In this document: positions 1-18,682 of the stretch, piece after piece
How positions within the stretch are numbered: position 1 is the stretch's first letter
Layout: each line of letters starts with the position of its first letter
Assembly (NCBI GenBank): GCA_963832745.1
Contig: CAWHVC010000004.1
Location: 167,754 to 231,753 of the forward strand
Direction of reading: 5' to 3'
Length of the DNA: 64,000 nucleotides
Source of the DNA: Candidatus Bathyarchaeota archaeon
GTDB taxonomy: Archaea > Thermoproteota > Bathyarchaeia > Bathyarchaeales > Bathycorpusculaceae
Program-made: the position numbers and the translations under genes
The notes under the pieces: generated by a model
Database searches by the model: none
The model's input: the letters and a program-made list of their open reading frames with translations, nothing else
Told to the model about the DNA's origin: nothing

Positions 1-243
1 CGTAACCGCTGTTTTGTCTTTCATCAACGTGCCTGATTGTAGCACAAATAGGTTGGTATAGTTGGCCACTTTGTCGATTAATGCTTTGGCGTCTTGGGTG
101 CTGTTTCCACAGTAGGTTACGCCCACATGGAACGGTTTTTTTTCTTTGACGCTTTCGCCCAAGCTTGTGTAGCTAATGTAAGCAATTAATCCTGCTAATA
201 GTAGAAAAATAATCGCTGCTGAGGGTACAATTTTTCTTTTCAT
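1..243 (-). CDS. 5' part (81 codons; the gene continues left of the window) of a fourth member of the secreted paralog family
   Basis: ATG at 243-241. My translation MKRKIVPSAAIIFLLLAGLIAYISYTSLGESVKEKKPFHVGVTYCGNSTQDAKALIDKVANYTNLFVLQSG... is colinear with the N-termini of the ORFs at 359-1882, 1990-3486 and 3576-5147. Confidence 0.8.
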   Translation of the reverse strand, partial: MKRKIVPSAAIIFLLLAGLIAYISYTSLGESVKEKKPFHVGVTYCGNSTQDAKALIDKVANYTNLFVLQSGTLMKDKTAVT

Positions 244-250
244 AGGCAAA

Positions 251-338
251 CGCTTCTAAGATTGAGCATTTCACAAGTCGGGGTTTATTTATGTTTTCCA
301 GAATCTGCCAGTTAAGGGTAAAATTTTCAAGTGAGCAA
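251..338. repeat. Duplicated 5' flank of the paralog genes, copy A
   Basis: cgcttctaagattgagcatttcacaagtcggggtttatttatgttttccagaatctgccagtt (63 nt) is identical at 251-313 and 1891-1953 (offset 1640 nt). The next ~25 nt are near-identical. Confidence 0.9.
284..293 (-). promoter_or_regulatory. Candidate archaeal TATA box (minus-strand CATAAATAAA) about 40-50 nt upstream of the ATG at 243. An identical element lies at 1924-1933 upstream of the next paralog.
   Basis: AT-rich TATA-like octamer at a plausible distance from the start codon, conserved inside the duplicated flank. Confidence 0.35.
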
Positions 339-358
339 CGAAAAAGTGATCTGCTCTT

Positions 359-1882
359 TTATTCAAAAAAGTAGATGTTGGCATATTTGCCTGCTACAGG
401 AAACGCTGGGTCGTCATAGACAATGTCTAGTTTTGTGCCGTATTGGTTCAGCTTGTTTTGTACTTGGTTCCAAATTTGGGTTGAAGTATCGTTTGATTCC
501 CATATTCCCCAAATGATGTCGCTGGGGTTTCGCATGCCATAACCATAATTTTTTGGTAAAACCAGTACAGCTTCAGCTTTAACGCATCCATAGGTGACCG
601 CTGGGTTTTGGACTACCTCGTTCCAGAAACGTTCTAACGCCTGAAAATGTTGCTCTTGTAGTGTACCGTAAGGCCCTGACATGTCTGCTGCATAATTGAA
701 TAACATAACGTATCGGGCTCCGTTTTCGTAAGAGGTTTTCATTTGTTCAAACAATTCGTCGCCGTCAGCAAGGTAGGGTGCATGGGTGTATTTCCATGTT
801 AAGATTGTTCCCCAGTCTTTGCCCTGCAAATTGGCTGCCCCACGAACTAAAGCGATTTCTTGGGTGACAGAATTGTTCCAGCCAAGTTCCCCAAGAACCA
901 TGTCGTATCCGCTCTTGCAATCCCACCAGTACAATCCATAATCAGCCGTAAAAACAGGGAATTCCCCTTTGCTTATGTTCCATTGATTCTTTAAATCGGC
1001 TACTGAGGCGCTGGTTTTGTTTACAAAGACTTCAGCGGCGCCGTCACAGTCTGTTAGGGGGTTTTTGCTTGCCACTTGTTGATAAGTTTCTTCTTGGGCA
1101 ATGCGGTTTGAGCCATTTTCCATTGTATAGAAATCATTTTTTAATGTTTCATCTGCTGAATCCCCTGCATTAATAGGAACATAGGAAAGACCGCCCGTGT
1201 ACACTTTACTTGTTGAGTTTGTGATTGTTTCGCTTACTGTTATTGTACCGTTTGGTTTGTATGTAGTCGTATTGGTGTTTCTTAACATGATCGGCATTGT
1301 TACTGATGAATTAGTTGGGTCTACACTGGAAGAAGTTTCTTCCACTCTTTGAACTACAATTGTGCCGTCAAGATAAAATGTTGCAACATACTTGTTTCCA
1401 TCACGATAATTCACTAAGCCATTTTTATTTCTATCCAAGATTATTCCCCGCTCATTCGTGTAATAAATGTCTCCGTCAAGAAATTTACCTCCAGGTTCAT
1501 CACCCAAATAGACGCCTGCAAACATGTCTCCCCACCGTTGCTTCGCTGTGCCTACCCATTCAGCCTTATCTGCAGAAGTTAAAACGTCAAAATAAGCAGC
1601 AAAATGCAGTCCTTTAGCAACAGCATAATCCCCTACCTCATTTACTGCTGTGGCATTATTTTTCAATACGCCTGACTGCAGGACAAACAGGTTAGTGTAG
1701 CTGGCAACTTTGTCGATTAGGGTTTTGGCGTCTTGGATGTTGTTTCCGCCGTAGGTTACGCCAACATAAAACGGTTTCTGCTGTTGGCTACTTTCACCTA
1801 AGCCTGTAAAACTGATGTATGCAATTAAACCTGCCAATAGTAGAAAAATAATCACTGCTGAAAGCACAATTTTTCTTTTCAT
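359..1882 (-). CDS. Membrane-anchored secreted protein, paralog family of unknown function (possible clan GH-A-like TIM barrel with a variable insert)
   Basis: I prefer the ATG at 1882 (MKRKIVLSAVIIFLLLAGLIAY, hydrophobic signal-anchor) over the tracked start at 1909. The N-terminal block KPFYVGVTYGGNNIQDAKTLIDKV...GDEPGGK and the C-terminal block FYTMENGS...MVLGELGWNNS...LTWKYTHAPYL... are shared with 1990-3486 and 3576-5147. Confidence 0.85.
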   Translation of the reverse strand: MKRKIVLSAVIIFLLLAGLIAYISFTGLGESSQQQKPFYVGVTYGGNNIQDAKTLIDKVASYTNLFVLQSGVLKNNATAVNEVGDYAVAKGLHFAAYFDVLTSADKAEWVGTAKQRWGDMFAGVYLGDEPGGKFLDGDIYYTNERGIILDRNKNGLVNYRDGNKYVATFYLDGTIVVQRVEETSSSVDPTNSSVTMPIMLRNTNTTTYKPNGTITVSETITNSTSKVYTGGLSYVPINAGDSADETLKNDFYTMENGSNRIAQEETYQQVASKNPLTDCDGAAEVFVNKTSASVADLKNQWNISKGEFPVFTADYGLYWWDCKSGYDMVLGELGWNNSVTQEIALVRGAANLQGKDWGTILTWKYTHAPYLADGDELFEQMKTSYENGARYVMLFNYAADMSGPYGTLQEQHFQALERFWNEVVQNPAVTYGCVKAEAVLVLPKNYGYGMRNPSDIIWGIWESNDTSTQIWNQVQNKLNQYGTKLDIVYDDPAFPVAGKYANIYFFE

Positions 1883-1890
1883 GGGACAAT

Positions 1891-1978
1891 CGCTTCTAAG
1901 ATTGAGCATTTCACAAGTCGGGGTTTATTTATGTTTTCCAGAATCTGCCAGTTTAAGGTAAAATCTTCAGTGGAGCAA
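1891..1978. repeat. Duplicated 5' flank of the paralog genes, copy B
   Basis: See copy A at 251-338. Confidence 0.9.
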
Positions 1979-1989
1979 AGAAATAAGTG

Positions 1990-3486
1990 TTAAGTTATGT
2001 TCCAGAAGTAAATGTGTGAGTATTTGCCTGTTACAGGAAACGCTGGGTCATCATAAACTATGTCCAGTTTTATTCCGTATTGGTCAAGTTTGCTTTGTAC
2101 TTGGTTCCAGATTTGGGTTGAAGTGGCGTTTGGTTCCCATATTCCCCAGATAACGTCGCTGGGGTTTCGCATGCCCCACCCGTAGTTTTCGGGCAAAACC
2201 AGCACTGCTTCCGCCTTATCGCTTCCGTGAATTTCTGCTGGGTTCTGGACAACTTCTTTCCAGAAGCGTTCGAGGGCTTGAAAATGCTCTTCCTGCAATG
2301 TACCGTAAGGTCCAGTCATATCTTCGGCATAATTGAATATAACAACATAATCCGCTCCAGCCTTGTAGGAAGTTTTCATTTGGTCAAACATTTCAGCCCC
2401 ATCAGTCAAATATGGCGCGTGAGTGTATTTCCAAGTGATTATTGTTCCCCAACTTTTTCCCTGCAAGTTGGCTGCTCCACGGGCCAAACTGATTTCTTGA
2501 CTTACCGAATTGTTCCATGCAAGCTCAGCAAGAACCATGTCATAACCGCTCTGAAGGTCCCACCAGTAAAGTGCATAATCAGAAGTGAAAATCGGGAAAG
2601 ACCTCCCCTTAAGGTTACGTTGCCTGATTAAACCATCTACAAAACCGCTGGTTTTGTCAACATAGAAGTTAGCCGCGGTGTTGTAGTCGCGTAAGGGGTT
2701 TTTGTCTTTCGCTTGTTGATAAGTTTCTAATTGAGCGATGATGTCTGAACCATTTTCCATTGTGTACCTACTGAAACTGACTATTTCCGAAGAAATGATG
2801 CCTATACCCCCTTTTGCTGTTTTTTTCTCGATCATTTCAAAAAAGGTTATTGTGCCGTCTGTCTTGTAGGTTGTCGAGTTGGTTACTACACTATAGGCGG
2901 CGATGAATGAGGGGTCGTTATTATTAGAAAACAATGTGGAACTAGTAGAGTTTGTTTTAGATACCGTTATTGTGCCATTTGGATAAAAACTTCTCGAAAT
3001 ATCAGTTTCATCTGTATTGACTGTGCCGTCTTGCCATTTTGTAACTGACATATCTTCGCCTAAAACTAGCCAGGTAGTGTAACCGTCAAGCATTTTGCCT
3101 CCAGGTTCATCCTCATAATAGATTCCTGCAAACATTTTGCCCCACCGTTGCTCAGCAGCACTTATCCAGGTTGCATCTGAAATGCCGAAGGCTGAAGCAG
3201 CAGCGAAATGTAAACCTTTGGAGACTGCGTAATCGCCAATTTCGTTTACGGCGGTATTGTTTCCTATTATTGTAAATCCTGATTGTACTACAAAGAGGTT
3301 GGTGTAGTTTGCTACTTTGTCTATTAGCAGTTTGGCGTCTTGCACAGTGTTTCCGCAGTAAGTTACGCCTACAAGGAAGGGTTTTTGCTCTTCGCCTTCA
3401 CCGAAGTCTGTGTAGGCAACGAAGATTAGAGAGCTTACAAAGAGGATGCAAATAATTGCTGATGAAAGAATTTCTTTTCGGGTCAC
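1990..3486 (-). CDS. Membrane-anchored secreted protein, same paralog family
   Basis: GTG start, signal-anchor ILSSAIICILFVSSLIFVAY. Conserved blocks KPFLVGVTYCGNTVQDAKLLIDKV, YEDEPGGK, MVLAELAWNNS, ITWKYTHAPYL. The central ~100 aa are not alignable by eye to the neighbours. Confidence 0.85.
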   Translation of the reverse strand: MTRKEILSSAIICILFVSSLIFVAYTDFGEGEEQKPFLVGVTYCGNTVQDAKLLIDKVANYTNLFVVQSGFTIIGNNTAVNEIGDYAVSKGLHFAAASAFGISDATWISAAEQRWGKMFAGIYYEDEPGGKMLDGYTTWLVLGEDMSVTKWQDGTVNTDETDISRSFYPNGTITVSKTNSTSSTLFSNNNDPSFIAAYSVVTNSTTYKTDGTITFFEMIEKKTAKGGIGIISSEIVSFSRYTMENGSDIIAQLETYQQAKDKNPLRDYNTAANFYVDKTSGFVDGLIRQRNLKGRSFPIFTSDYALYWWDLQSGYDMVLAELAWNNSVSQEISLARGAANLQGKSWGTIITWKYTHAPYLTDGAEMFDQMKTSYKAGADYVVIFNYAEDMTGPYGTLQEEHFQALERFWKEVVQNPAEIHGSDKAEAVLVLPENYGWGMRNPSDVIWGIWEPNATSTQIWNQVQSKLDQYGIKLDIVYDDPAFPVTGKYSHIYFWNIT

Positions 3487-3575
3487 TGTGGTTCGCTTCT
3501 AAAGATAAGTGTTGTCTTGTTAAATAATTCTTTTCTATAAATCCCATATTTTTGGCAAAATAATGGAAAGGAAGG

Positions 3576-5147
3576 TTAAGTGTCATCCCAATAGTAAACA
3601 TCAGCATACTTGCCTTCAACTGGATGGGCTTGGTCCTGATAGACTATATCTAGTTTAGTGCCATACTGCTCCAGTCTGTTTTGTAGCTGTGTCCATATTT
3701 GACTTGACGTAGCGTTTGGTTCCCATATTCCCCAAATGACGTCAGATGGGTTACGCATCCCCCAGCCATAGTTGCAGGGTAAAACCAGTGTTGCTTCTGC
3801 TTTGATACCTCCCTGAATTACCTTAGGGTTTTGGACTACCTCGTTCCAAAAACGTTCTAATGCTTGAAAATGCTGTTCTTGCAGGGTTCCATATGGTCCT
3901 ATGGCGTCTGCTGCATAGTTGAAAAGTATGACGTATTGGGCTCCGTTTTCATAGGAGGTTTTCATTTGGTTAAAAATTTCGTCACCGTCGGCAAGGTATG
4001 GAGCTTGAGTGTATTTCCATGTTAAGATTGTTCCCCAGTCTTTGCCTTGCAAATTGGCTGCTCCACGAACTAAAGCGATTTCTTGGGCAACAGTATTATT
4101 CCAGCCAAGTTCCGCAAGAACCATGTCATATCCGCTCTGGTAGTCCCACCAGTAAAGACCATAATCGGCAGTAAAAATGGGAAAAGACCCTTGGCTCATA
4201 TTTAATTGCAACTTTGAATTTGCTAATTTTGCTTTGGTTTGGTTTGTGAAGACGTTTGCGGCGCCGTTGCAGTCTGATATGGGGTTTTTGCTCATTGTTT
4301 GTTGGTAAGTTTCTTCTTGAGCAATACGCTTTGAGCCATTTTCCATTGTATAAAAGTCGTTATGTAATATTTCGAATGAATTTTCCCCAATTGGAATAGG
4401 CCAAATAATATGGTTCATACCATTTTCATCAGTTGAATTTGAATCTTGAGCTTTTTGGATAAAATTCTTGCCTGTCGAATTAGAAATTATTTCCTTTATT
4501 GTCATTGAACCATTTGGATCGTAAACAATCGTGTCGGCTGTAGTTACTGTGTTCCATATTGTAATAGAAGAATTGTTTGGGTCAGTAATAGAGGTATCAA
4601 TCGAGTTACTTCTCATTTTAATAATGGTGCCGTTTGGGTAAACATCAACAGAAAATCCCGTATTGGGCTCATTGTAAGAGACTCTTCCATCTTCATTTTT
4701 TACAATAATGGAACTAGAATTTTCATAATTCAAGCAGATTGTGGTGCCATCAAGAAACTTTCCTGCTGGTTCATCATCATAATAGACTCCTGCAAACATG
4801 CTGCCCCACCGTTGCTCAGCAGTGCTTATCCATGTTGCATAAACAACATTGTAACTTGTAGTCGCAGCAAAGTGTAATCCTTTAGTTACTGCGTAATCCC
4901 CTATCTCGTTAATGGCTTGGTCGTTTTTAATTAGGGGTCCTGAATTGAGGACGAACAGGTTTGTGTAGTTGGAGACCTTGTCGATTAGGGTTTTAGCGTC
5001 TTGTACGTTGTTTCCGCCGTAGGTTACGCCTACAAGGAAGGGTTTTTGTTGTTCGCCTTCTCCAAAGTTTGCTTGACTGACAAATATTATTGAGCTTGCA
5101 AGGAGGATGCAAATGATGGCTGATGAAAGTGATTCTTTACGGTTCAA
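3576..5147 (-). CDS. Membrane-anchored secreted protein, same paralog family
   Basis: TTG start, signal-anchor LSSAIICILLASSIIFVSQ. Conserved blocks KPFLVGVTYGGNNVQDAKTLIDKV, YDDEPAGK, MVLAELGWNNT, LTWKYTQAPYL. It has the longest divergent central insert. Confidence 0.85.
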   Translation of the reverse strand: MNRKESLSSAIICILLASSIIFVSQANFGEGEQQKPFLVGVTYGGNNVQDAKTLIDKVSNYTNLFVLNSGPLIKNDQAINEIGDYAVTKGLHFAATTSYNVVYATWISTAEQRWGSMFAGVYYDDEPAGKFLDGTTICLNYENSSSIIVKNEDGRVSYNEPNTGFSVDVYPNGTIIKMRSNSIDTSITDPNNSSITIWNTVTTADTIVYDPNGSMTIKEIISNSTGKNFIQKAQDSNSTDENGMNHIIWPIPIGENSFEILHNDFYTMENGSKRIAQEETYQQTMSKNPISDCNGAANVFTNQTKAKLANSKLQLNMSQGSFPIFTADYGLYWWDYQSGYDMVLAELGWNNTVAQEIALVRGAANLQGKDWGTILTWKYTQAPYLADGDEIFNQMKTSYENGAQYVILFNYAADAIGPYGTLQEQHFQALERFWNEVVQNPKVIQGGIKAEATLVLPCNYGWGMRNPSDVIWGIWEPNATSSQIWTQLQNRLEQYGTKLDIVYQDQAHPVEGKYADVYYWDDT

Positions 5148-5285
5148 ACTTGTGGCTCCTAAGTTGAAGCGTTGACTTGCGCTGCTTATTTATTTTTTCC
5201 AAAATCAAGGCTTTCAGTAAAAATTGCCAAAAAACTTATCTGACCAACTAAACTATTAAATCTCTAAAATGTTCCTTGGAGGCCC

Positions 5286-7213: not shown

Positions 7214-7603
7214 TTGCTCAGTTTTAAATGCCAAAAGTTGATTCCGTTGAACAACACACGCTCAAGATTACCTTCCATATTAAACAACAGTTTTCAGCCA
7301 AAAAGCGCAGAGTACGCTTTTGAGTTGTTCCTTTGCGGTATGACCCAAAAGTCCTTGCAGACAATAAAAGCCGTTAAAACCGTTCTGGACCAACAATTGC
7401 CAAACTACAAACTTGAAGTTATTGACATATTCAAAAACCCCCGACGAACCTGTCAAGAGCAAATCATGACTACGCCAACATTGATCAAAAAATCTCCGTT
7501 GCCCACGCGTAAAATTTCTGGAGATATAACAGGTAAGGACCGGATACTTTGCGGTTTAAACATAAACCAAAAAAGGCAAGCGTTAGGAGCAGAAGAACCA
7601 TGA
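7214..7603 (+). CDS. kaiB: KaiB-like protein (thioredoxin-like fold, circadian clock protein KaiB family)
   Basis: YAFELFLCGMTQKSLQTIKAVKTVLDQQLPNYKLEVIDIFKNPRRTCQEQIMTTPTLIKKSPLPTRKISGDITGKDRILCGLN aligns without gaps to cyanobacterial KaiB (YILKLYVAGNTPNS...[33 protein letters not shown]). The start codon is uncertain (in-frame TTG at 7214, 7238 or 7247). Confidence 0.8.
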   Translation: MLSFKCQKLIPLNNTRSRLPSILNNSFQPKSAEYAFELFLCGMTQKSLQTIKAVKTVLDQQLPNYKLEVIDIFKNPRRTCQEQIMTTPTLIKKSPLPTRKISGDITGKDRILCGLNINQKRQALGAEEP

Positions 7604-8103
7604 CTGAAACAAAAGAAATCCACAAGTTGAAACTGGAGATTGAGCATTTGCAGGGGCGACTGCAAGAGTTAGAGGAAACCATGGCCAGTGTTTGCGGTGG
7701 TACGGCGGATGCAATAATTGTTTCAACAGTTGACGGTGAGAAAGTTTTCACCTTGATGACTGAGGAGCAGCCTTACCGGCTATTTGTGGAGCAGATGCTT
7801 CAGGGTGCAGTTATGCTTTCAGATGATGATACCATTCTTTACTGTAACAAAGCCTTCGCGGGAATGGTGAAAGATAAAGCTGAAGTAGTAGTGGGCAAAA
7901 AACTCCAAACTTACGTATCCCAAAACCTGCATTGTGAGCTAAACATTTTTCTTACAAAAAATAGGCAAGAAAAAGTCCCTCAACAACAGAATTTACTTTT
8001 GCAAACAACAGACGGTTCCGCAGTTGACGTGCAGGTTTCAATTAGCAGGTTTGAGCAAAACGCTTTCAAAGGTTCCTGCCTGGTTTTTGTAAGTTGCCGC
8101 TAA
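7600..8103 (+). CDS. Coiled-coil plus PAS-domain protein with no output domain
   Basis: ATG 7600 overlaps the kaiB stop (ATGA). Heptad-like EIHKLKLEIEHLQGRLQELEETM is followed by a PAS-like core AIIVSTVDGEKVF...TILYCNKAFAGMVKDKAEVVVGKKL. Confidence 0.7.
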   Translation: MTETKEIHKLKLEIEHLQGRLQELEETMASVCGGTADAIIVSTVDGEKVFTLMTEEQPYRLFVEQMLQGAVMLSDDDTILYCNKAFAGMVKDKAEVVVGKKLQTYVSQNLHCELNIFLTKNRQEKVPQQQNLLLQTTDGSAVDVQVSISRFEQNAFKGSCLVFVSCR

Positions 8104-8299: not shown

Positions 8300-8968
8300 T
8301 TGACCGTTTATTTATCAAGCATAGTTGGAAGCCCCAGCATAGGCGTGTACTCGCTGGCAACAGAAAACATAGTAATGATTCCACGTATGGTGCCCAAACA
8401 GAAGGCACAAGAATTTGCAGATTGGCTAAAGGTAAAATTAGCTTACACAACGATTAGCGGCTCAGTTTTGACTGGTGCGCTCGCATGCGCAAACTCTAAC
8501 GGCATGTTGGTTGCAAGTTCTATCCGAGAAGAAGAATTAACAGAAATCCGCAGTGTTTTCGACGGCAACATAACTATTATGGAAACAAAAAAAACCGCTT
8601 ACGGCAACCTAATTCTGGTAAATGACAAAGGAGCCGTAGCTGACCCACGCCTTAAGGAGACTGAGGTTAAAAAAATTTCTGAAGCCCTTGGCGTGGAAGT
8701 GTTGCAGTCTGAAATCGCCGGGTTGCCTTATGTGGGTTCTTTAGCTTGCGTCACAAACAAGGGCATTCTAGCTCATCCCATGTTGAAAGATGAAGAACGC
8801 AAAATTCTCGAGCAAGCCCTCAAGGTGCCTGTTGACGTCGGCACAATTAACTGTGGTATTCCATATGTCGGGACAGGCTTAATTGGGAACAGTACTGCAG
8901 CTGTTGCTGGCTCAATGACTACAGGTCCAGAAATGTTCATAATTGAACATGCCTTGGATACCTTGTAA
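8300..8968 (+). CDS. eif6: Translation initiation factor 6 (aIF6/eIF6)
   Basis: SIVGSPSIGVYSLATENIVMIP..., GNLILVNDKGAVADP, GSLACVTNKGILAHP, GLIGNSTAAVAG: the repeated subdomain pattern of eIF6. Confidence 0.9.
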   Translation: MTVYLSSIVGSPSIGVYSLATENIVMIPRMVPKQKAQEFADWLKVKLAYTTISGSVLTGALACANSNGMLVASSIREEELTEIRSVFDGNITIMETKKTAYGNLILVNDKGAVADPRLKETEVKKISEALGVEVLQSEIAGLPYVGSLACVTNKGILAHPMLKDEERKILEQALKVPVDVGTINCGIPYVGTGLIGNSTAAVAGSMTTGPEMFIIEHALDTL

Positions 8969-8993: not shown

Positions 8994-10865
8994 TCATTCT
9001 TTTTCTTTTGCAACTAAATTCTTTTTGAAGCCTAAAATAACCAGTATAGTTAAGCTTGTTATTGCCAAAACAGATAGTAACACAATGATGATTGTTTGAG
9101 GTTGTGACGTGTTATTTTCTAGCGACGTCGAGTCGGTTGGGGCAACTATTTGTGTTGGAATGCTTGTTGGTGTTGCCGTGGGTGTAGGTGTAATTTTTGG
9201 GGAGGCGGTCGGGGTTGAAGGTGGAGTTAGAGTTGGTTTAGGCGTTGCTGTGGGTTCAACGGTTGGAGTAGGTGACGGTATTGGCGTGGCTGTGGGAGTT
9301 GGACTTGTTGTAGGCGAAGGTGTTGGGGTTGGTGCAGGAAACGGCTCAGCTGTTTCTGTGTTTCCAAGATAACTTCTATTTGGCAATTCAGACACAAGCG
9401 TTTTCGAGTTAATGTTGTTCCAGTCGTCGGCGAAATTTACCTGCCAAACGCCTATATTATTTAAATTATACTCGAAAATGTTTGTTCCAAGCATTGACAG
9501 GAAAGTTCCCGGTTTGGAAACGCTTAACGTTAATGTATGGGTTTCAAGATTTAAGCTACTAACTCCGCCATCAATTATGTTATTGATGTCTTGATATCTG
9601 TAATCCTGTAAAGGCACCGCTAAAGCACCAGTCACTGGAACGGTGGATAGTTGCATTAACAAGACTGCTGCGTCTGCAGTAGCCTCAGTGCTGACTGAAG
9701 TGTCAGAAAGCATTTTGAACATTCCAGTTGTTTCATCATAAAGTTTGCTTTGCATGATTAAATTCCAAGCTGGGGCTGGACCGGTTGAACCGTCTAAGAG
9801 TGCTTGAATCTTGTTTTGCATATCACTTGTTAAGTTGCCGTAGAATCCGAGCATGGCTGCCCAGGAATTTATTGTGTTTTCAAGTCTTTGCTGTGAATTT
9901 TCTGTTGCATGCACAACAACGTAGTCTGCCCATTGAGGGCTGTTCCATCCGTTGCTTAATGCTCTGGTTTCCATGTCAACGAAAAGATTCTCTACATTAG
10001 GGATTGATGAGTCATATTGGTAAAATTTCCAAATAATCTGGTCGAATGCGCCTGCTTCGCATTCAAAAGTGTTCCACTTGTTGGCGTATTTGTAGAAGCT
10101 TCCGCTGGAACTATTAACCCAAAGATTGGCGTTTTCCCAATTCCACCAATGTTTAGCCTGCGTTAATCCATCCTCTATACCCAACAACCAAAAATTAAGA
10201 TACATATCTATTGTTTGTGCACATTCATCATAATATCTGGGTCCATATTTAATTCCCCAACCAACGCCGTTGGACCCAACACAAAGGACTGGTTTGCCGT
10301 AAGCAGTAACACTATCATTAAACACAGCGTACGCTTCTGAGATGTTCCATTTTGATGTCTGATAATTTAATTGTTCAGCCCATTGGTATGCGTTTAGGAC
10401 ATATCGATTGTATACCATGAAGGAAGCAGTCTCTCCGTTTAAGTAATCAAAGGGTAAACCGCCGATATTTGGTAACATTGTTACTGCGTCTAACGCTGCT
10501 TCTATTGTAGTACTATTGATGCTAACCCCTAACTTGTTTAACTGAATATACCAGTAAAACACTGATTCAGCAGCAGAAGTAGATGAGACATTTATAGAGT
10601 CAACCGCTTGTTGAAGTTGTGCCACCGTAGTTTTACCCAAAACAATGCCGTCATATATTGTTTGCAGACTACTATTCCAGCCGCCATTGGCTTCAATTTT
10701 GCTTTCTAAAACAGAAATTGCAGACGATGAACCTTCCGATTGAGTTGAATAGTTAGTTGTCTGTCCACTAGCAAAGCTTGTTGTTCCAACAAAACAGCTA
10801 AGAATCAAGACGGCTGTAAGTTTTACTGTCGTAATTTGCAGTAATTTGGAAACTTGAGTCTGCAT
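8994..10865 (-). CDS. Secreted surface protein with a Pro/Thr-rich stalk and C-terminal TM anchor, function unknown
   Basis: N-terminal signal ([19 protein letters not shown]), ~480-aa W/N-rich globular part with many N-x-S/T sequons, PT linker ([26 protein letters not shown]...), then [24 protein letters not shown] plus a basic tail. Confidence 0.7.
9130..9345 (-). repeat. Low-complexity Pro/Thr-coding tract (stalk of the surface protein)
   Basis: Imperfect ggtgt/ggagt repeats on the + strand encode (P/T/S)n on the - strand. Confidence 0.8.
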
Positions 10866-11131: not shown

Positions 11132-11359
11132 ATGAAGGTTTTCAGAGTAACCGGCGAAATAAACAAGCCTAACTTGGCAACACCGTTCGCTAAAGAAATC
11201 TTAGCAGAAAAAAGCGAACATGCCGTAGAAAAAGTCTACGCAGAGATAGGCAGCAAACACCGCGTAAAAAGATATCACATAAAAATTTCAGGTTCAACCG
11301 AAGTTCCAGTAGACGAAATCGAAAATGATGTCCTTAAGAAAATAGTTCTTGGGGAGTAA
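11132..11359 (+). CDS. rplX: 50S ribosomal protein LX (L18Ae/eL20 family)
   Basis: MKVFRVTGEINKPNLATPFAKEILAEKSEHAVEKVYAEIGSKHRVKRYHIKI fits the archaeal LX pattern. Conserved position upstream of pfdA-ftsY. Confidence 0.85.
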   Translation: MKVFRVTGEINKPNLATPFAKEILAEKSEHAVEKVYAEIGSKHRVKRYHIKISGSTEVPVDEIENDVLKKIVLGE

Positions 11360-12715: not shown

Positions 12716-12837
12716 CCCTATTTTTTGTGTTTAGCCTTTTTGATTATATGGCAAGAAAATCTGCTGTTGCTGTCAACTTTATGGGTCAACTTGTTAGCTG
12801 AATTAACGGAACTGTCAGTTCAGGCTAAACATGTGTG

Positions 12838-13203
12838 TTATGGTTCTTCTATGTCGGCTAGTTCAAAACGGATTTTTGTTGGATAAATCCAGTAGGCGTT
12901 GATGAAGTCATCGATTTTTTGGTCAACATCTAAGACTTCAAAAAAGTTGGTAAACTCGCTGTCAACATCTTCAACGCTTGTAGAAGAATAAACTTTCAGG
13001 TCAACCAGGTACTCTTTTTCTGGTGATAAGCTTTCAAGGACATCTTTTTCTTTAACTTCAATGGTGAATGGTAGATTGGTTAAAACATCTAAAACCGCCA
13101 TTTTATGAACGTTAACGTTTTTAGCTTTAACAATTACTAATCTACGGTCTGTTACACGATAATTCCATTCAGCAGAATCCGAGCGACTCCAAGAAGCAGA
13201 CAT
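12838..13203 (-). CDS. Hypothetical protein (121 aa, acidic)
   Basis: Clean ORF with plausible composition. No family recognised. Confidence 0.45.
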   Translation of the reverse strand: MSASWSRSDSAEWNYRVTDRRLVIVKAKNVNVHKMAVLDVLTNLPFTIEVKEKDVLESLSPEKEYLVDLKVYSSTSVEDVDSEFTNFFEVLDVDQKIDDFINAYWIYPTKIRFELADIEEP

Positions 13204-13303
13204 ATTATTCCCTGCTGTTAACTATTCTTTTCAAAGGCATAAAAATGTGTGGTTGCCTAGCAACAGTCACATAGCCAGAAAAGCCCAACCCTGCTTATTT
13301 TAG

Positions 13304-13789
13304 ATGGTGACTTCTTTGAAGAGAGTATACGCTCTCTTTTTTGGATTGTTAACTGTCTTGTTTTTTGTGTTGATGTCAAAAATCGATTACATTGTACACG
13401 CTACCCTGTACGAGTATGGCCTCACTTTTTCTTATGACTGGGCAAACACTTACTGGCTAACATACAACTTGGTCTTCTTAGCCTTTGCATTAACCATGGC
13501 ATTCTGCTATTACGTCGGTTCCCAAAAAAGCTTTCAAAATAAAAAAGTTGCACTTGCAATTTTTGCTTCAATTAATGTGCTTGCAGTTTGTGGATTCCAG
13601 GATGTACTGTTTTTTGTTTTATGGTCTGGCAGCCTGCCGCCGGGAACGCTGGTTTGGTGGTGGTCAATGTGGGCGCCTGTTTTTGGAACCTGGAACAGTC
13701 AACTTCAAGTTGCCCTAACAGGTTTAGGTTTCGCATGCGTTACCGCAACATGGATACTAACTTTGTACAAGAAAAAACCGGTTTTATAG
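13304..13789 (+). CDS. Hypothetical integral membrane protein (about 4 TM)
   Basis: Four hydrophobic segments, W-rich loop LPPGTLVWWWSMWAP. No family recognised. Confidence 0.55.
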   Translation: MVTSLKRVYALFFGLLTVLFFVLMSKIDYIVHATLYEYGLTFSYDWANTYWLTYNLVFLAFALTMAFCYYVGSQKSFQNKKVALAIFASINVLAVCGFQDVLFFVLWSGSLPPGTLVWWWSMWAPVFGTWNSQLQVALTGLGFACVTATWILTLYKKKPVL

Positions 13790-13819
13790 ATTAAAAAAGA
13801 GAAAGCCCAAAAAAATGGG

Positions 13820-15259
13820 TTATCTTATTTGGCGGTCTAGTAGGTTTCCGTTTGCGTCAAACAGTTTAACATCAAGTGCCATTTGGCCAACTGCGTGTGT
13901 TGCACAGCTTAAGCATGGGTCAAACGCGCGTATGACTGCTTCTACACGGTTAAGCATGCCTTCTTGCAAGTGTTGTGCTTTAACATATTTTTTGGCTACT
14001 TGAGTGACCGCCATGTTATAGGCAATGTTGTTGTGTTCTGTCGCGATGACCATGTTGTTCCATGTAATTCTGCCTTGTGGGTCAACTTTGTAGTGGTGAA
14101 TCAATGTGCCTCTTGGTGCTTCGGCGACGCCTACGCCTTCGTAATTGTTAACCATTGCTCTTGATGTGACATGTTCAGAGAGAATTTCTGGGTCTTCCAG
14201 CAGTTTCTTGGCTGTTTCAATGCAGAACAATGTTTCAATTAGTCTAGCGTAATGATATTGGAACGTGCTTTGGACTACACCGTTTTTGCCTAGCTTCTTG
14301 AAGTTTTTGAGTTCTTCATCGGCTAATGGTGTTCCGCAATGTGTTGCAACGTTTAGCCGTGCTAATGGTCCAACACGGTATGCCCCGTCTGGGTAGCCGA
14401 TTGCTTTGAAGTAGGGGAATTTCATGAATGTCCATGGCTCTACTGCTTCGCCGATAAACTCTTGGTACCTTAGGGGGTCAACGCATTCAGCTGCTATGAC
14501 GCCGTCTTTATCCATTATACGCAGTTTGCCGTCATAATGCTCCAAGCCGCCGTCAGGTGTAACCAGTCCCATGTAGTAACTGGGAAAATTGCCAAAGTTC
14601 TCAACTTCCTCGTCGAAACCATCAAGCATCTGCTTATACCTTGCTAACGTGTTCTGGGTAATTTCTAACGCTTCTGGCAACTTGTTTTGTAGGTAATCGG
14701 CGCGTTCTTTTGTTAATGGCCATTTTGCGCCTCCAGGCTGGATCCAGTCGCTTGAATGGATACGTTTACCTGCAACTTTCTCGATGAGTTCTTGTCCGAA
14801 ACGCCGTAGTTTTATGCCTTGCATTGCTATGTCTGGCTGTTTTTCTATTAAGCCGAAGATGTTTCTTTTTGCTGGGTCTGAGTCGAAGCCGAGCAGTAAG
14901 TCTGGTGAGGATAAATGGAAGAAGTTTAGTGCGTGTGACTGGATAAGTTGTCCCATGTGCATTAATCGTCGAAGCATGATTGTGGTTTTTGGTGGTGTTA
15001 AGCCAACTATGGCGTCGCAGGCTTTGGCGGATGCGAGCAGGTGGCTTACGGGACATATTCCGCAGGAACGACTGGTTATTGCTGGCATTTCATAGTATGG
15101 TCTGCCTTCAGTGAATTTTTCAAAGCCTCGAAAGTCTACGACTTTGAATTGTGCTTCTTTTACTGTGTCATCTGGGTTTAACAATATGTTTACTTGAGCG
15201 TGCCCTTCGATACGTGTGACTGGGCTGATTACAATTTTCTTTTCTGGTGTTTTATCCAT
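13820..15259 (-). CDS. hoxH: [NiFe] hydrogenase large subunit, HoxH-like (group 3)
   Basis: N-terminal RIEGH and CGICPVSH; C-terminal DPCLSCATH followed by a 24-aa tail typical of a protease-cleaved extension. Confidence 0.9.
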   Translation of the reverse strand: MDKTPEKKIVISPVTRIEGHAQVNILLNPDDTVKEAQFKVVDFRGFEKFTEGRPYYEMPAITSRSCGICPVSHLLASAKACDAIVGLTPPKTTIMLRRLMHMGQLIQSHALNFFHLSSPDLLLGFDSDPAKRNIFGLIEKQPDIAMQGIKLRRFGQELIEKVAGKRIHSSDWIQPGGAKWPLTKERADYLQNKLPEALEITQNTLARYKQMLDGFDEEVENFGNFPSYYMGLVTPDGGLEHYDGKLRIMDKDGVIAAECVDPLRYQEFIGEAVEPWTFMKFPYFKAIGYPDGAYRVGPLARLNVATHCGTPLADEELKNFKKLGKNGVVQSTFQYHYARLIETLFCIETAKKLLEDPEILSEHVTSRAMVNNYEGVGVAEAPRGTLIHHYKVDPQGRITWNNMVIATEHNNIAYNMAVTQVAKKYVKAQHLQEGMLNRVEAVIRAFDPCLSCATHAVGQMALDVKLFDANGNLLDRQIR

Positions 15260-15794
15260 ATCTTGCTCTGCCCTCCATGCTGGGTGCCCTGCCTGACAGC
15301 AGTTCTGTTAAGACGTAATGTATCAGGTCTGCTGATGGTGGGCATCCTGGAATGTAGAAATCAACTTTAACAATTTCGTGTAGCGGTCTGGCTTTGATAA
15401 GCAGTTTAGGTACCATGTTTGGAACTGCAGCGTTTAAATCTTCAGGAGCTTTGTAAGCGCGTTCCAAAACTTCAGTGTCACTGTTATCCCAAGAATTTCT
15501 AAGTGCTGTAACGTTGCCAGTGACTGCGCAGTCCCCAAGCGAAATCAAAACACGGGTTCTTGACCGCACCTTTTTTAGCATTTCAAGCTGTTCCTCATTT
15601 GCTATTGCACCTTCAATGAGTGTCACGTCAACGTTTTCAGGGAACTCTTTAACGTCCGCTATTGGACTGTAGACAAGATGAATACTTTTTGCTAAATCAA
15701 TTAGTCTCTCATCTTGGTCAAGGAAGGACATGTGGCATCCTGAGCAACCGCTAAGCCAAACTGTTGCAACTCTCGCTTTTCTTTTTGTGGTCAT
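15252..15794 (-). CDS. hoxY: [NiFe] hydrogenase small subunit, HoxY-like (NuoB fold)
   Basis: VWLSGCSGCHMSFLD, GDCAVTGNV, IPGCPP cluster-binding motifs. 8-nt overlap with hoxH. Confidence 0.9.
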   Translation of the reverse strand: MTTKRKARVATVWLSGCSGCHMSFLDQDERLIDLAKSIHLVYSPIADVKEFPENVDVTLIEGAIANEEQLEMLKKVRSRTRVLISLGDCAVTGNVTALRNSWDNSDTEVLERAYKAPEDLNAAVPNMVPKLLIKARPLHEIVKVDFYIPGCPPSADLIHYVLTELLSGRAPSMEGRARYG

Positions 15795-16501
15795 TTACGG
15801 TTTCTCCTTTCAGTGATGAATTCGGCAACGTCACGGTTTTTGGTTTGAGTGATTGGTTCGCCTTCAATATAGATGGCTCCGACTGGGCAGACTTTGGCGC
15901 ATTTGCGGCAACTTGTACAGCTGCAAGAGTTGCCCCATGACTCGTTCAAATCCATAATTACTTCTGTGTCTTTGCCGCGAAGCTTTAAGTCAAGCGTGTG
16001 GACTCCTTCAATTTGGTCGCAAACGCGGATGCAACGTGTACAAAGTATGCAACGGTTTCTGTCAATAACCAAAAAGTCATGTGATGAATCAATGACGTCA
16101 CGGGTAAAGTTGCGTTCAAACATTACATGGTCAACACCCAACTGATTGGCAAGAGCTTGTAGTTCACAGTGGTCGTTGGCAACGCAGACAGAACAGATAT
16201 GTACCCTTTCAGCCATGAGCATTTGAATTGCCATTCTACGGTAATCTTTTAGGCGTTCAGAGTTGGTGGTGATTTCCATGCCGGGGCTAACTGGAGTGGT
16301 GCAGGCAGGAAACAGTTTTGGTGTACCTGTAACTTCTACTAGGCACAGCCGGCAACCGCCATACGGAGTTAACCCTTCTAGGTTGCAGAGTGTGGGAATT
16401 AGGATTCCGTTGTCTTTGGCTGCTTTTAGGATGGTTGTGCCTTCAGGAACGGAAACTTGAACGCCGTCAATTTTTAGGGATACCCTGGGATTTATGCTCA
16501 T
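15791..16501 (-). CDS. hoxU: Diaphorase Fe-S subunit HoxU-like (NuoG N-terminal type: 2Fe-2S plus 4Fe-4S)
   Basis: KIDGVQVSVPEGTTILKAAKDNGILIPTLC...GGCRLCLVEV, then HICSVC...C and two CxxCxxCxxxCP motifs. Confidence 0.85.
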   Translation of the reverse strand: MSINPRVSLKIDGVQVSVPEGTTILKAAKDNGILIPTLCNLEGLTPYGGCRLCLVEVTGTPKLFPACTTPVSPGMEITTNSERLKDYRRMAIQMLMAERVHICSVCVANDHCELQALANQLGVDHVMFERNFTRDVIDSSHDFLVIDRNRCILCTRCIRVCDQIEGVHTLDLKLRGKDTEVIMDLNESWGNSCSCTSCRKCAKVCPVGAIYIEGEPITQTKNRDVAEFITERRNRK

Positions 16502-16503
16502 TT

Positions 16504-18033
16504 TTACTCCTCCGCTTTTTTGTCTTTAAAGCAGACGCCTGCCCTGCATTTTTTATCCACGATATGTTCGATGTATTCTTCTTTGAAGTACCTTAGCGTG
16601 GTTAGAATTGGGTTGGGTGCTGTTTGTCCTAGACCGCACAGGCTGGCGTTACTGATATAATCGCTTGATTTTTCTAAAATGTCAATGTCACTTAATTCGC
16701 CGTTCCCTTGTGTGATTTTATCGAAAATTTCTTTAACACGTGCAAGTCCTGCCCTGCAGGGAGTGCATTTGCCGCAGGATTCGTCAATGCAGAAATCGGT
16801 GAAGAAGCGGGCTGTATCTACCATGCATGAATCCTCGTTAAGTACTACGATGCCGCCTGAACCCATAATTGCGCCTACTTTCTTTAATGAGTCGTAATCG
16901 ATGGGTGCCTCTAGTAGTGTTTCTGGTAAGCAGCCGCCTGATGGGCCTCCGACGAGTACGGATTTGAATTTTTTGCCGTTTGGCATGCCGCCGCCTATGT
17001 CGTAGACTATTTCACGTAGGGTTATGCCCATGGGGACTTCAATTAAGCCTGGGTTGTTGATTTCGCCTGTTAAAGAGAAGCATTTTGTGCCCGTGCAGTT
17101 GGGTAAACCAAAACTTTTGAACCATGCCCAACCGTTCAAAATGATAAGTGGCGTGTTAGCTAATGTTTCAACGTTTTGAATCAATGTAGGCTGTTTCCAT
17201 AAACCCTGGTTTGCTGGGTATGGTGGTCGAGGACGCGGTTGAGCTCTGCGGCCTTCAACTGACGCAAGAATCGCTGTTTCTTCTCCAGCAACAAAAGCGC
17301 CTGCGCCGAAGCGTAATTCAAGGTCAAACTTGAACTGTGTTTCAAGAATGTTATCCCCTAAAAGGTTCATGGCTTTAGCTTGGGCGATGGCTTTCTGCAG
17401 CGTTTGAATAGCTAACGGGTATTCTGAACGGATGTAAATGTAACCTTTTTGTGCGCCAATCGCGTAGCCGGCAATCAGCATGCCCTCGATAATTGCGTGT
17501 GGGTCAGCTTCTGCAAGTGTTCGGTTTGCGAAAACACCTGGGTCACCTTCGTCAAGGTTTGCTACAATGTATTTTGGTGTATCGTGTGCCCGTGCGACTA
17601 GGTTCCATTTTTGTCCTGTTGGGAAACCTGCGCCACCTCTTCCGCGTAGTCCGCTGCTGGTGACTTCGTAAATTACTCCTTGTGGCGTCATAGTTGCAAG
17701 GCATTTTGCAAGTGCCGCGTAGCCGCCTGCCGAAATGTAGTCTTGTATTCTGGTTGGGTCAATTTTGCCTGCGTTTCTAAGCACTAGACGTTGCTGTTTT
17801 TGGAAGTAGCCGTCATTATTGTATAGCATGCTTTTGACGGGTAATCCTAACACGATGTGGTCGCGTACGATTTCGCGGACGTTTTCAGGTTTGACACTTT
17901 GATACAGGTGGTCGCCTGGTTCGATAAGTACCGCTGGGCCAACAGAGCATGTGCCAATGCATCCTGTTCTGGCGACTTTGCATATGTTTTCCACGCCGAA
18001 CTCTTTTACCGCATCTTCAAAGGCTTTAAGCAC
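16504..18033 (-). CDS. hoxF: NAD(H)-binding diaphorase subunit HoxF-like (NuoF family). The true 5' end probably lies upstream of the tracked GTG.
   Basis: GLRGRGGAGFPTGQKW (FMN/NADH site), ESCGKCTPCR (4Fe-4S), N-terminal thioredoxin-like 2Fe-2S module. The frame stays open to 18153 and encodes two needed Cys (see finding). Confidence 0.85.
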   Translation of the reverse strand: MLKAFEDAVKEFGVENICKVARTGCIGTCSVGPAVLIEPGDHLYQSVKPENVREIVRDHIVLGLPVKSMLYNNDGYFQKQQRLVLRNAGKIDPTRIQDYISAGGYAALAKCLATMTPQGVIYEVTSSGLRGRGGAGFPTGQKWNLVARAHDTPKYIVANLDEGDPGVFANRTLAEADPHAIIEGMLIAGYAIGAQKGYIYIRSEYPLAIQTLQKAIAQAKAMNLLGDNILETQFKFDLELRFGAGAFVAGEETAILASVEGRRAQPRPRPPYPANQGLWKQPTLIQNVETLANTPLIILNGWAWFKSFGLPNCTGTKCFSLTGEINNPGLIEVPMGITLREIVYDIGGGMPNGKKFKSVLVGGPSGGCLPETLLEAPIDYDSLKKVGAIMGSGGIVVLNEDSCMVDTARFFTDFCIDESCGKCTPCRAGLARVKEIFDKITQGNGELSDIDILEKSSDYISNASLCGLGQTAPNPILTTLRYFKEEYIEHIVDKKCRAGVCFKDKKAEE

Positions 18034-18136
18034 TTTAAGTGCGCCAAAGGGTACACAGCCGCTTGAGCAGCAAACGTTAATGCGGTACTTGTAGGCTCTT
18101 TGGAATTCTGTTTCTTGTTCTGCAATTTTTTGTATG

Positions 18137-18628: not shown

Positions 18629-18682
18629 ACATTGAAGCCTCCAATAAACAATTTCGATACTAGTATGCCAACATTTAATCTG

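Follow-up and report, generated by a model that had tools for sequence, protein, structure and literature searches.

What kind of protein is encoded by tandem archaeal genes whose ends are conserved and whose middle diverges, and what might the divergent part do? We addressed this question for an array at the edge of a 64-kb stretch of DNA (hereafter the window). A sequence-only reading had proposed at least four membrane-anchored paralogs of an unrecognised family, each with conserved flanks around a variable centre, and had suggested that they are surface glycosidases carrying a swappable inserted domain.

A tandem array of paralogs with divergent centres

Open reading frames on the minus strand of the window comprise three complete genes and one edge-cut paralog, arranged head-to-tail:

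3576-5147, minus strand: paralog A (P0001), 523 aa, TTG start (ORF)
1990-3486, minus strand: paralog B (P0018), 498 aa, GTG start (ORF, alignment)
359-1909, minus strand: paralog C (P0004), 516 aa as listed (ORF)
1-243, minus strand: first 81 codons of paralog D, truncated by the window edge (full-length protein P0078, 473 aa)

A tblastn search across the 64-kb window found no copy beyond these four. The translation of paralog D is the exact N-terminus of the database protein P0078 from the same 267,603-bp contig, and gene D is therefore complete in the source genome. An N-terminal hydrophobic helix is common to all four paralogs, and in A it accompanies a split barrel bearing the longest insert among the copies. 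Gene C probably starts at the ATG at 1882 (its tenth codon, MKRK...) and not at 1909. The 100 nt upstream of C and D are nearly identical, and inspection of the sequence and of pattern positions located A/T-rich boxes ahead of the genes:

5190-5197, minus strand: TATA-like A/T-rich box, 42 nt upstream of the start of A
3534-3541 or 3520-3527 (B), 1925-1932 (C) and 285-292 (D): similar boxes

The occurrence of a TATA-like box at each copy suggests that each may have its own promoter.

Protein identity between A and its paralogs is 69-79% in the N and C blocks versus 22-29% in the central stretch, which establishes the proposed pattern of conserved flanks and a divergent centre that is far less alike. 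At the DNA level the paralogs are 34-52% identical in the centre, and their C blocks reach up to 92%; on recheck, the earlier figure of about 90% DNA identity between 800-960 and 4025-4185 was reproduced. Remarks on composition also stood: N-x-S/T sequons occur at 2-3 times their frequency in shuffled sequences, and Y-x-P-N/D-G-T-I-T motifs correspond to the recurring (Y)xPNGTIT-like strands that had been described.

We found that the copies are mosaic. No one pair of paralogs is the closest throughout the gene (chi2=70.8, p=2e-10), and P0023 is a chimera that passes from C-like (87-100%) to B-like (~90%) near residue 345. Copy number varies as well: across related genomes, the locus adjoining the S19e gene holds one, two or at least four copies, and arrays of two or three copies occur at 14 of 80 loci. 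By its tandem arrangement, variable copy number and mosaicism, this is a tandem multigene family subject to birth-and-death and gene conversion. Gene birth and death shape the set of copies, with recombination or gene conversion acting on the barrel-coding flanks.

Between C and its ortholog, the insert carries 13 amino-acid changes and 3 silent ones, versus 10 and 23 in the N block (insert vs N block p=0.0018). The excess of nonsynonymous over silent changes in the insert is based on 16 differences, and exchange between paralogs, raising silent divergence in the flanks, is an alternative cause.

A barrel interrupted after its fourth strand

Searching protein databases returned 2826 matches to the family, every one named 'hypothetical', which fall into 895 clusters at 50% identity; a profile built without the insert gave 1827 matches. 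Among the best 120 of the 2826, the contig studied here contributes only the four array proteins. GTDB species genomes yielded 336 matching stretches, and all 80 of the loci kept are titled Bathyarchaeia or bear a broader archaeal label (Thermoproteota, Nitrososphaerota, Crenarchaeota). The three complete proteins matched nothing in Pfam or NCBIfam at E up to 10, a PDB sequence search gave no match even with profiles, and in a scan of 40 relatives no glycosidase family turned up repeatedly. Judged by these searches, the family, rightly called unrecognised, is a large undescribed one so far known only from Bathyarchaeia. The novelty lies in the family, the fold being already known.

We obtained AlphaFold (AF2) models of A (pLDDT 90.6) and of the insert-less homolog P0152 (pLDDT 91.7). 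Alternating beta/alpha elements form eight beta-alpha units in A, and P0152 likewise has eight, its secondary-structure elements corresponding to those of A everywhere except at the insertion. The models thus agree with the earlier view of the conserved blocks as one domain split by the variable part, and predict a (beta/alpha)8-type barrel with a small C-terminal beta-alpha-beta piece.

Foldseek comparisons, which had been suggested as a check, returned TIM barrels, many of them glycosidases. The insert-less model had 337 PDB matches at E<1e-3; the best 50 are nearly all TIM barrels, GH5, GH26, GH79, GH30 and GH98 among them, with TM-scores of up to 0.56-0.61 relative to the targets and only 0.36-0.47 relative to the query. 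These matches are generic: non-glycosidase barrels (dehydroquinase, tagatose epimerase, pyruvate kinase and betaine-homocysteine methyltransferase) score as well as or better than the glycosidases. With the full-length model, pyruvate kinase was the best match and GH42, GH84 and GH20 were among the others. A viral library placed GH5, phage polysaccharide depolymerases, hexosaminidases and Spherulin-4-like proteins at the top.

In the window's clade, the model of A places the insertion directly after beta4 and Asp125-Glu126, in the beta4-alpha4 loop. It is 145-155 residues long, maps to A residues ~134-290, and has a variable part and a conserved tail:

4356-4748, minus strand: variable part (A residues 134-264), a beta-meander rich in N/S/T and sequons
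2770-3084 (B) and 1133-1474 (C), minus strand: equivalents of the variable part
4266-4355, minus strand: conserved tail FYTMENGS..RIAQ..TYQQ..NP (A residues 265-294), in insert-bearing members only
2680-2769 (B) and 1043-1132 (C), minus strand: equivalents of the conserved tail

DSSP assigns the strands of the variable part in A to residues 136-229, each 15-18 residues long and mostly with pLDDT >90. The tail faces gaps in the insert-less proteins P0152, P0154, P0165 and P0168; by this comparison, 'FYTMENGS...NP' is the end of the insertion and not, as had been proposed, part of the C block. Spacing between the D-E and T-A-D-Y motifs is bimodal (40-70 vs 120-215 residues), and roughly half of the family members sampled have no insertion. 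The centres differ in length, as had been noted, but are not beyond alignment: those of A, B and C resemble one another significantly (z = 9.7-19.3 in Smith-Waterman comparison with shuffled sequences), and anchor positions K150, G173, Y209 and G213 are kept across 78 relatives. What had looked like a swappable domain is a single homologous, fast-diverging beta-meander. No relative with an insert of the A type was found, the closest ones being 76% identical to A in the flanks and only 22-29% in the insert. The B type recurs in P0036 (71% identical), and the C type in P0023 of a syntenic locus (88-89% identity).

Conserved residues and candidate function

Conservation was scored in 78 close relatives and in 316 family members. 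The positions that matter most are as follows:

4770-4775, minus strand: Asp125-Glu126 codons of A, just after beta4; best candidate catalytic pair
3106-3111 (B) and 1496-1501 (C), minus strand: equivalents of Asp125-Glu126
4164-4166, minus strand: Asp328 codon of A, final residue of beta5 (strand 324-328, T-A/S-D-Y)
4110-4112, minus strand: Glu346 codon of A (the Glu of 'EL(G/A)W'), on beta6, not conserved

Asp125 and Glu126 are present in 78/78 close relatives and in 98% of the 316 members. Glu126 lies three residues past strand 118-123, preceded by the invariant Asp and followed by Pro in 69 of the 78. Asp328 is the sole acid conserved throughout (316/316). Alignment and DSSP place further invariant residues on the C-terminal barrel face, namely Tyr329 (end of beta5), Trp349-Asn350 (after beta6), Thr376-Trp377 (after beta7) and Phe409-Asn410-Tyr411 (after beta8); Arg361, Arg465, His426 and Asp469 are also conserved.

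The sequence-only reading had likened D-E-P and EL(G/A)W to the catalytic motifs of clan GH-A retaining glycosidases, with Glu126 as acid/base after beta4 and the second Glu as nucleophile on beta7. In favour of this comparison, the fold is a TIM barrel, GH5, GH26, GH30, GH79 and GH42 are among the fold matches, and an invariant Glu, mostly followed by Pro, stands just after beta4. The assignment to the clan fails. EL(G/A)W lies on the sixth strand (342-347 in A, 193-198 in P0152), not the seventh, and position 346 is Glu in 49 and Gln in 29 of the close relatives, and Glu in 222 and Gln in 90 of the 316 members (70% vs 28%), with about 40 switches between the two on the family tree. Strand beta7 (370-375, W-G-T-I-I/L-T-W) has no acidic residue, and no Pfam model of the clan gave a hit with a cut-off as lenient as E = 10. 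Contradicted by the strand position and conservation of E346, membership of clan GH-A was rejected, and we regard a GH-A mechanism as highly improbable.

We propose instead, with about even confidence, that the array encodes tandemly amplified exported barrel proteins that act as extracellular carbohydrate-active hydrolases with a fast-diverging arm. We infer this activity from the invariant acids and aromatics at strand ends, the glycosidase-rich fold matches and fusions to beta-helices: C-terminal NosD/beta-helix (CASH-type) domains are present in 6 of 10 long relatives tested. NosD-type beta-helices are frequent across diverse archaeal surface proteins, which weakens the fusion argument for a carbohydrate role. 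Gene neighbourhoods contain housekeeping or unrelated genes, and those examined showed no link to a carbohydrate pathway.

The N-terminal helix, as signal-anchor or signal peptide, would export the protein and allow its retention at, or release from, the cell surface. In the model, the invariant acids and aromatics on the C-terminal barrel face resemble what sugar-binding catalytic pockets usually contain. Glu126 would be the putative general acid/base, and its putative helper either Asp125, engaging the substrate's acetamido group in the style of D-E-motif enzymes, or Asp328, as a second carboxylate. Long hairpins with Y-x-P-N-G-T-I-T turns, probably N-glycosylated, make up the arm; it is predicted to project from the catalytic face and probably tunes substrate binding or reach. 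Since the arm diverges fast, we propose that each copy would pair unchanged chemistry with a different arm.

Some of the same observations would suit a surface glycoprotein that catalyses nothing: a TIM-barrel lectin, adhesin or envelope part in the style of chitinase-like lectins, its arm making contacts and its array supplying surface variation. Export signal, sequon enrichment, a long exposed beta-sheet arm, copy number and inserts that vary between genomes, the lack of a link to any enzyme family, and E/Q toggling at a pocket position are all consistent with such a role. We think it unlikely; D125, E126, D328 and many pocket residues are near-absolute at ~40% identity, a pattern more like catalysis than binding alone, and about half of the sampled family does without the arm.

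An extracellular TIM-barrel enzyme with another chemistry seems to us just as doubtful. Such an enzyme might, for instance, be a phosphodiesterase or a polysaccharide lyase or esterase, or its substrates might be peptides or compounds derived from lignin. Non-glycosidase barrels are indeed among the best PDB fold matches, but these are mostly cytoplasmic metabolic enzymes, whereas this family is exported. The conserved Arg361, Arg465, His426 and Asp469 could suit a charged substrate or a metal, and the habitat of Bathy-6 organisms in lignocellulose wastes (PMC11697101) would fit lignin-derived substrates. Against this, the pocket is rich in Trp/Tyr/Asn/Asp, like sugar-binding sites; glycosidases and depolymerases dominate the viral-library matches; and the fusion partners are CASH-type beta-helices.

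Relation to known systems

Clan GH-A (GH5, GH26, GH42 and others) shares with the family a (beta/alpha)8 barrel and a Glu-Pro after beta4 resembling the N-E-P acid/base, and in GH42, too, the barrel is followed by an alpha/beta domain (1kwg, TM-score 0.41). The family differs from the clan in having Asp, not Asn, before the Glu, no conserved carboxylate on beta7, a proposed nucleophile that lies on beta6 and is often Gln, and no profile match.

The pyruvate kinase B domain and GH13 domain B are likewise beta-rich lobes in a catalytic-face loop, with an alpha/beta part after the barrel. Those lobes are compact and follow beta3, whereas the family's is a long meander; for pyruvate kinase, the TM-score is only 0.28 and there is no sequence relation. 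Long antiparallel hairpins rich in T/S/N/K recall the single-layer sheets of Borrelia OspA/OspB and the CPAP G-box. A weak profile match of the insert to OspB (E=0.3) and Foldseek matches to the CPAP G-box (E ~0.01-0.05) are all below significance; the resemblance is one of architecture, and nothing indicates a shared ancestry.

Glycosidases with a D-E motif use substrate-assisted catalysis, the Asp holding the acetamido group and the Glu serving as acid/base (PMC11087588). GH20, GH84, GH123 and new beta-N-acetylgalactosaminidase groups (PMC11087588) resemble the family in an adjacent, invariant Asp-Glu on the catalytic face of a (beta/alpha)8 barrel after beta4, and D-E and D-D motif enzymes also manage without a separate conserved beta7 nucleophile. 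GH84 O-GlcNAcases (~115 residues) and GH20 gave local Foldseek matches to the full-length model. Unlike these enzymes, the family has no GH20, GH84, GH123 or DUF4091 profile match, GH84 is absent from the best 50 PDB fold matches of the insert-less model, and the additional invariant Asp328 could equally serve a two-carboxylate mechanism.

The endo-alpha-1,4-galactosaminidases of GH114, GH135, GH166 and GH191 (Ega3, Sph3, PelA; PMC12054363) offer a further comparison. Neither a Glyco_hydro_114 nor a Spherulin4 profile matched the family, no exopolysaccharide synthase genes were found in the neighbourhoods examined, and the insertion in these enzymes is small and follows beta3, whereas that of the family is ~150 residues and follows beta4. 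Like the family, they are extracellular TIM barrels; the C-terminal face bears their catalytic Asp/Glu pair, as it does the candidate pair of the family, and the viral-library fold matches include 'Spherulation-specific family 4' proteins. The fungal Ega3 and Sph3 are membrane-bound, and glycosidases of this kind, TIM barrels at the membrane that carry an inserted beta-sheet over the active site (PMC12054363), are a precedent for the architecture proposed here.

Array organization and gene surroundings

The tandem array of paralogs with a split scaffold, first noticed in a sequence-only reading, is real. Four genes, designated A to D, lie head to tail on the minus strand, and all four show the same order of N-terminal hydrophobic helix, N block, divergent centre and long C block.

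Genes of the array (window coordinates, strand, description)
3576-5147, minus strand: A, open reading frame of 523 aa
1990-3486, minus strand: B, open reading frame of 498 aa
359-1909, minus strand: C, open reading frame of 516 aa
1-243, minus strand: D, 81 codons, truncated at the window edge

The N-terminus of P0078, a 473-aa database protein encoded on the same 267,603-bp contig, matches D exactly, and the D gene is therefore complete in the source genome. No further copies were found by tblastn in the 64-kb window, and among the best 120 database matches only A-D came from this contig. The array genes are spaced 80-115 bp apart, with an A/T-rich TATA-like box 33-47 nt ahead of each start codon. 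The ~100 nt 5' of C (1883-1989) and of D (244-358) are nearly identical and hold a TATA-like box, ATAAATAA, together with a CTTAGAAGCG element ahead of the start, indicating that the duplication unit took in the promoter. Because of this near-identity, the most likely start of C is its tenth codon at 1882 (MKRK...) rather than the first ATG of the open reading frame (1909).

The array is surrounded by genes for ribosomal proteins S19e and L31e, aIF6 and the SRP receptor. These neighbours, and the Bathyarchaeia origin of the proteins' relatives, assign the window to a Bathyarchaeia archaeon. Across family loci, the genes nearby served ribosomes or translation, coded for radical-SAM enzymes or integrases, or lacked annotation; none recurred as a partner, and we therefore rejected gene neighbourhood as a clue to function. 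Several other loci in the region were recorded. Between the aIF6 (8300-8968) and L18Ae (11132-11359) genes, an open reading frame at 8994-10865 (minus strand) encodes a secreted protein of 623 aa that lacks a Pfam match, contains a long linker rich in Pro and Thr and has its transmembrane anchor at the C-terminus. Since these two genes abut in the related genomes of L001 and L083, the open reading frame appears to be a lineage-specific insertion that added a further surface protein; its PDB matches were confined to the low-complexity proline/threonine-rich linker and were uninformative. Amid ribosomal-protein genes, a small KaiB-like open reading frame (7214-7603, plus strand) overlaps or abuts a PAS-domain gene (7549-8103, plus strand). 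This pair is kept in L001, L002 and L083, and the L002 equivalent of the KaiB-like frame carries PF07689 (KaiB). In related Bathy-6 genomes, a 511-aa NosD/beta-helix surface protein (L001, 279-1814) sits between the SRP-receptor side and a [NiFe]-hydrogenase (HoxH) gene; the corresponding part of the window (12716-13819) contains short open reading frames only. At 13820-21677, the minus strand bears a cluster with genes for the large subunit of a [NiFe]-hydrogenase, for NuoF-like flavoprotein subunits and for a 945-aa protein in which an ADP-forming acetyl-CoA synthetase is joined to a GNAT acetyltransferase domain.

Conserved flanks, inserted arm and predicted fold

Comparison of the paralogs confirmed that the flanks are conserved and the centre is not, A sharing 69-79% identity with its paralogs in the flanks and 22-29% in the centre. 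At the DNA level, identity is 34-52% in the centre and reaches 92% in parts of the C block, and the example pair singled out from the sequence (800-960 versus 4025-4185) is indeed ~90% identical. The suspected richness in N-glycosylation sequons also held, with 9-13 observed versus 3.6-6.3 expected from shuffled sequences, a 2-3-fold enrichment. Two details of the sequence-only reading had to be revised. The centres, which could not be aligned by eye, are homologous among A, B and C (local alignment z = 9.7-19.3 versus shuffles), and anchor residues K150, G173, Y209 and G213 (numbered as in A) are common to these three and 78 relatives. The conserved FYTMENGS...NP segment, assigned to the C block, is part of the insertion rather than of the barrel when judged against insert-less homologs.

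We modelled A with AlphaFold2 using 78 relatives (mean pLDDT 90.6), which yielded the following elements.

Elements of the AlphaFold2 model of A (residues, description)
2-25: helix
24-31: disordered linker
38-43, 64-67, 92-97 and 118-123: strands 1-4 of beta-alpha units
136-229, plus a strand at 257-266: beta-meander
324-328, 342-347, 370-375 and 405-408: strands 5-8 of beta-alpha units
424-519: final helix-strand-helix-strand-strand piece

The model of P0152, a 377-aa homolog without the insert (pLDDT 91.7), shows a matching series of elements without the meander. The two conserved blocks are therefore predicted to form one barrel domain split in the beta4-alpha4 loop, and the idea of a barrel interrupted by a variable insertion just past the strand-4 D-E-P is right as judged from these models. 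In Foldseek searches with full-length A, the insert spoiled superposition (TM-score 0.28-0.41); the best matches were pyruvate kinase and GH42 beta-galactosidase (TM-score 0.41), with local matches to GH84 and GH20. Pyruvate kinase, too, is a barrel that contains an inserted beta domain. For this reason we modelled the insert-less homolog, which gave 337 PDB matches at E<1e-3. The best 50 listed were nearly all TIM barrels, with GH5, GH26, GH79, GH30, GH1, GH98 and GH13 enzymes interspersed with dehydroquinase, tagatose epimerase, pyruvate kinase and others. With the query as reference, TM-scores were 0.36-0.47; with small targets as reference, they reached 0.56-0.61. In the viral library, GH5 enzymes, phage capsule depolymerases, hexosaminidases and Spherulin-4-like proteins ranked highest. 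The predicted TIM-barrel fold is thus secure, and no single family is singled out.

The insert is built of hairpins with predicted strands that grow to 15-18 residues (175-189, 192-209 and 215-229; pLDDT mostly >90), and the turns carry Y-x-P-N/D-G-T-I-T, in which N-G-T is itself a sequon. As a description only, the insert resembles single-layer beta-sheets, the matches to OspB (weak, by profile, E=0.3) and, by Foldseek, to the CPAP G-box both falling below significance. Internal duplication of the insert was significant (z=5.5) in P0098, a relative from a termite-gut Nitrososphaerota/Bathycorpusculum bin (L017). We do not claim it for the window copies, where the signal was marginal or absent (z=-0.1 to 2.5). 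P0098 holds four clear Y-Y-P-N-G-T-I-T hairpin repeats and, besides its N-terminal helix, has a C-terminal transmembrane segment and basic tail, which suggests that the N-terminal helix is a cleaved signal in some members and that the arm grows by hairpin duplication.

Family distribution and evolution of the array

Searching 5.8 billion proteins returned 2826 matches, all from Bathyarchaeota, Bathyarchaeia or loosely labelled Thermoproteota and Nitrososphaerota bins; the named matches listed were all 'hypothetical protein', with one exception, a JGI label that is evidently spurious. Across 1.84 billion cluster representatives, an exhaustive search by profile gave 895 clusters, and a GTDB scan of one genome per species gave 336 stretches. 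The GTDB loci kept came from Bathy-6, termite-gut Bathycorpusculum, Bathyarchaeum and similar lineages, often with several loci per genome.

The initial impression of an unrecognised family was borne out by the absence of Pfam or NCBIfam model matches and of PDB sequence matches by profile. With E up to 10, searches of A, B and C against Pfam and NCBIfam returned only PBP-Tp47_a below threshold; at 18.8 bits against a cut-off of 25, and falling in the low-complexity beta insert, it was dismissed as a compositional match. No Pfam family recurred among 40 insert-less relatives, and PDB profile searches with 78 and 40 relatives gave OspB at E=0.3 only, or nothing. We found no literature description of the family, and it is absent from a Bathy-6 genome paper that lists GH5, GH2, GH113, GH109 and pectate-lyase-like proteins. 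Spacing from D-E to T-A-D-Y is bimodal, with 55 of 205 measurable members at 40-70 residues and the others at 120-215, and a later count found the insert in 144 members and missing from 150; the insertion is therefore a feature of a clade and not of the whole family. Six of ten long relatives tested had C-terminal NosD/right-handed beta-helix domains. Such CASH-type domains are typical of carbohydrate-binding and carbohydrate-cleaving proteins.

Copy number at the S19e locus varies among related genomes. One genome has a single D-type copy, another has two (a C-type gene, and an A-position gene whose insert is of yet a further type at 27% identity), and the window has at least four. Arrays of two or three copies occur in 14 of 80 loci. 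The paralogs are mosaic, the closest pair shifting along the gene from A/B (signal and N block) to A/C (most of the C block) and then B/C (3' end). Counts of informative sites were heterogeneous (chi2=70.8, df=12, p=2e-10), with the same result when the insert was removed. P0023, encoded at a syntenic locus in a related Bathy-6 genome, is C-like over residues 46-345 (87-100% identity) and B-like over 346-450 (~90%). Insert types are kept between genomes (C versus P0023, 88-89%; D versus its relative P0066, 89%), and some pairs have flanks ~81-83% identical with inserts just 29-34% identical. C and its ortholog differ by 13 amino-acid and 3 silent changes in the insert and by 10 and 23 in the N block (Fisher p=0.0018), giving, from small counts, Nei-Gojobori omega values of 0.83 and 0.11. 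Relaxed or diversifying selection acting on the arm could account for this pattern, as could paralog exchange raising silent divergence in the flanks, and both may act together.

Candidate active site and function

Residues conserved family-wide, or at least (near-)invariant in the window's insert-bearing clade, lie at the C-terminal strand ends: S69-G70, D125-E126, D328-Y329, W349-N350, T376-W377 and F409-N410-Y411. D328 is present in 316 of 316 members, and D335, R361, W371, R465 and D469 are also conserved. This location and residue make-up are as expected of a sugar-binding catalytic pocket in TIM-barrel enzymes. The sequence-only reading had matched D-E-P and EL(G/A)W to the acid/base and nucleophile of clan GH-A. 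For the first motif, D125 and E126 lie just after strand 4; neither varies among 78 close relatives, and conservation is 98% across 316 members. The second motif failed on strand position and on Glu/Gln variation: E346 lies on the sixth strand, and 222 of 316 members have Glu there and 90 have Gln. Strand 7 (W-G-T-I-I/L-T-W) lacks a carboxylate, so the strand-7 Glu nucleophile, a defining feature of GH-A, was tested and found absent, and a GH-A mechanism is not supported. Position 346 (window 4110-4112) is pocket-side within an otherwise invariant L-A-E/Q-L-G-W-N-N, and all four window copies have Glu. Across a neighbour-joining tree it switches ~40 times, versus 82 changes for shuffled labels. 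This toggling may be a functional switch, as in enzymes whose acid/base residue was lost, or a neutral exchange.

The most likely reading, which we hold with about even confidence, makes the proteins carbohydrate-active hydrolases that are exported, possibly tethered to the membrane, and belong to a new Bathyarchaeia-restricted family. Their probably glycosylated, fast-diverging beta-sheet arm would sit at the active-site rim, and the genes form a tandem amplification reshuffled by recombination. Two mechanisms would fit the candidate residues. Substrate-assisted catalysis could proceed via the D-E pair, as in GH20, GH84, GH123 and newly described beta-N-acetylgalactosaminidase groups, in which Asp holds the acetamido group of the substrate and Glu is the acid/base (PMC11087588). 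Classical two-carboxylate catalysis could instead pair E126 or D125 with D328. A fuller proposal is possible but tentative: in a new Bathyarchaeia-specific GH family, the strand-4 Asp-Glu and strand-5 Asp would be catalytic and an N-glycosylated, single-layer-sheet-like arm beside the active site would diversify between tandem copies, with recombination or gene conversion on the barrel flanks; organisms dominant in anoxic sediments would thereby have a built-in means of retargeting one surface enzyme to many polymers.

A non-catalytic surface glycoprotein, which could bear a sequon-rich arm and tolerate Glu or Gln at 346, seems unlikely to us beside the invariant D328 and the nearly invariant D125-E126. 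We give similarly low probability to other chemistry on the same fold; dehydroquinase and tagatose epimerase appear among the structural matches, and so do many glycoside hydrolases, alongside C-terminal domains of a carbohydrate-associated type in long relatives.

Bathyarchaeia, which rank with the most abundant archaea of anoxic sediments, peat, digesters and termite guts, are credited with breakdown of plant and detrital polymers, yet annotation assigns them few extracellular enzymes with confidence (PMC11697101). The present family runs to thousands of members with several copies per genome, combines an export signal with a sugar-enzyme-like pocket and is missed by every annotation library tested here; it could supply part of this degradative capacity, and would constitute a new CAZy family if activity is shown. 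If the proteins are non-catalytic, the finding shrinks to a lineage-specific surface glycoprotein family. The conserved barrel with a fast-diverging rim arm in mosaic arrays offers a tractable example of specificity evolving through loop-domain diversification. The closest working analogy is with the GH114/GH135-type proteins Ega3 and Sph3, relatives of PelA and GH191. The profiles of this group do not match the family, and their insertion follows strand 3. Ega3 and Sph3 are TIM-barrel glycosidases bound to the membrane, and a small inserted beta-sheet lies over their active site (PMC12054363).
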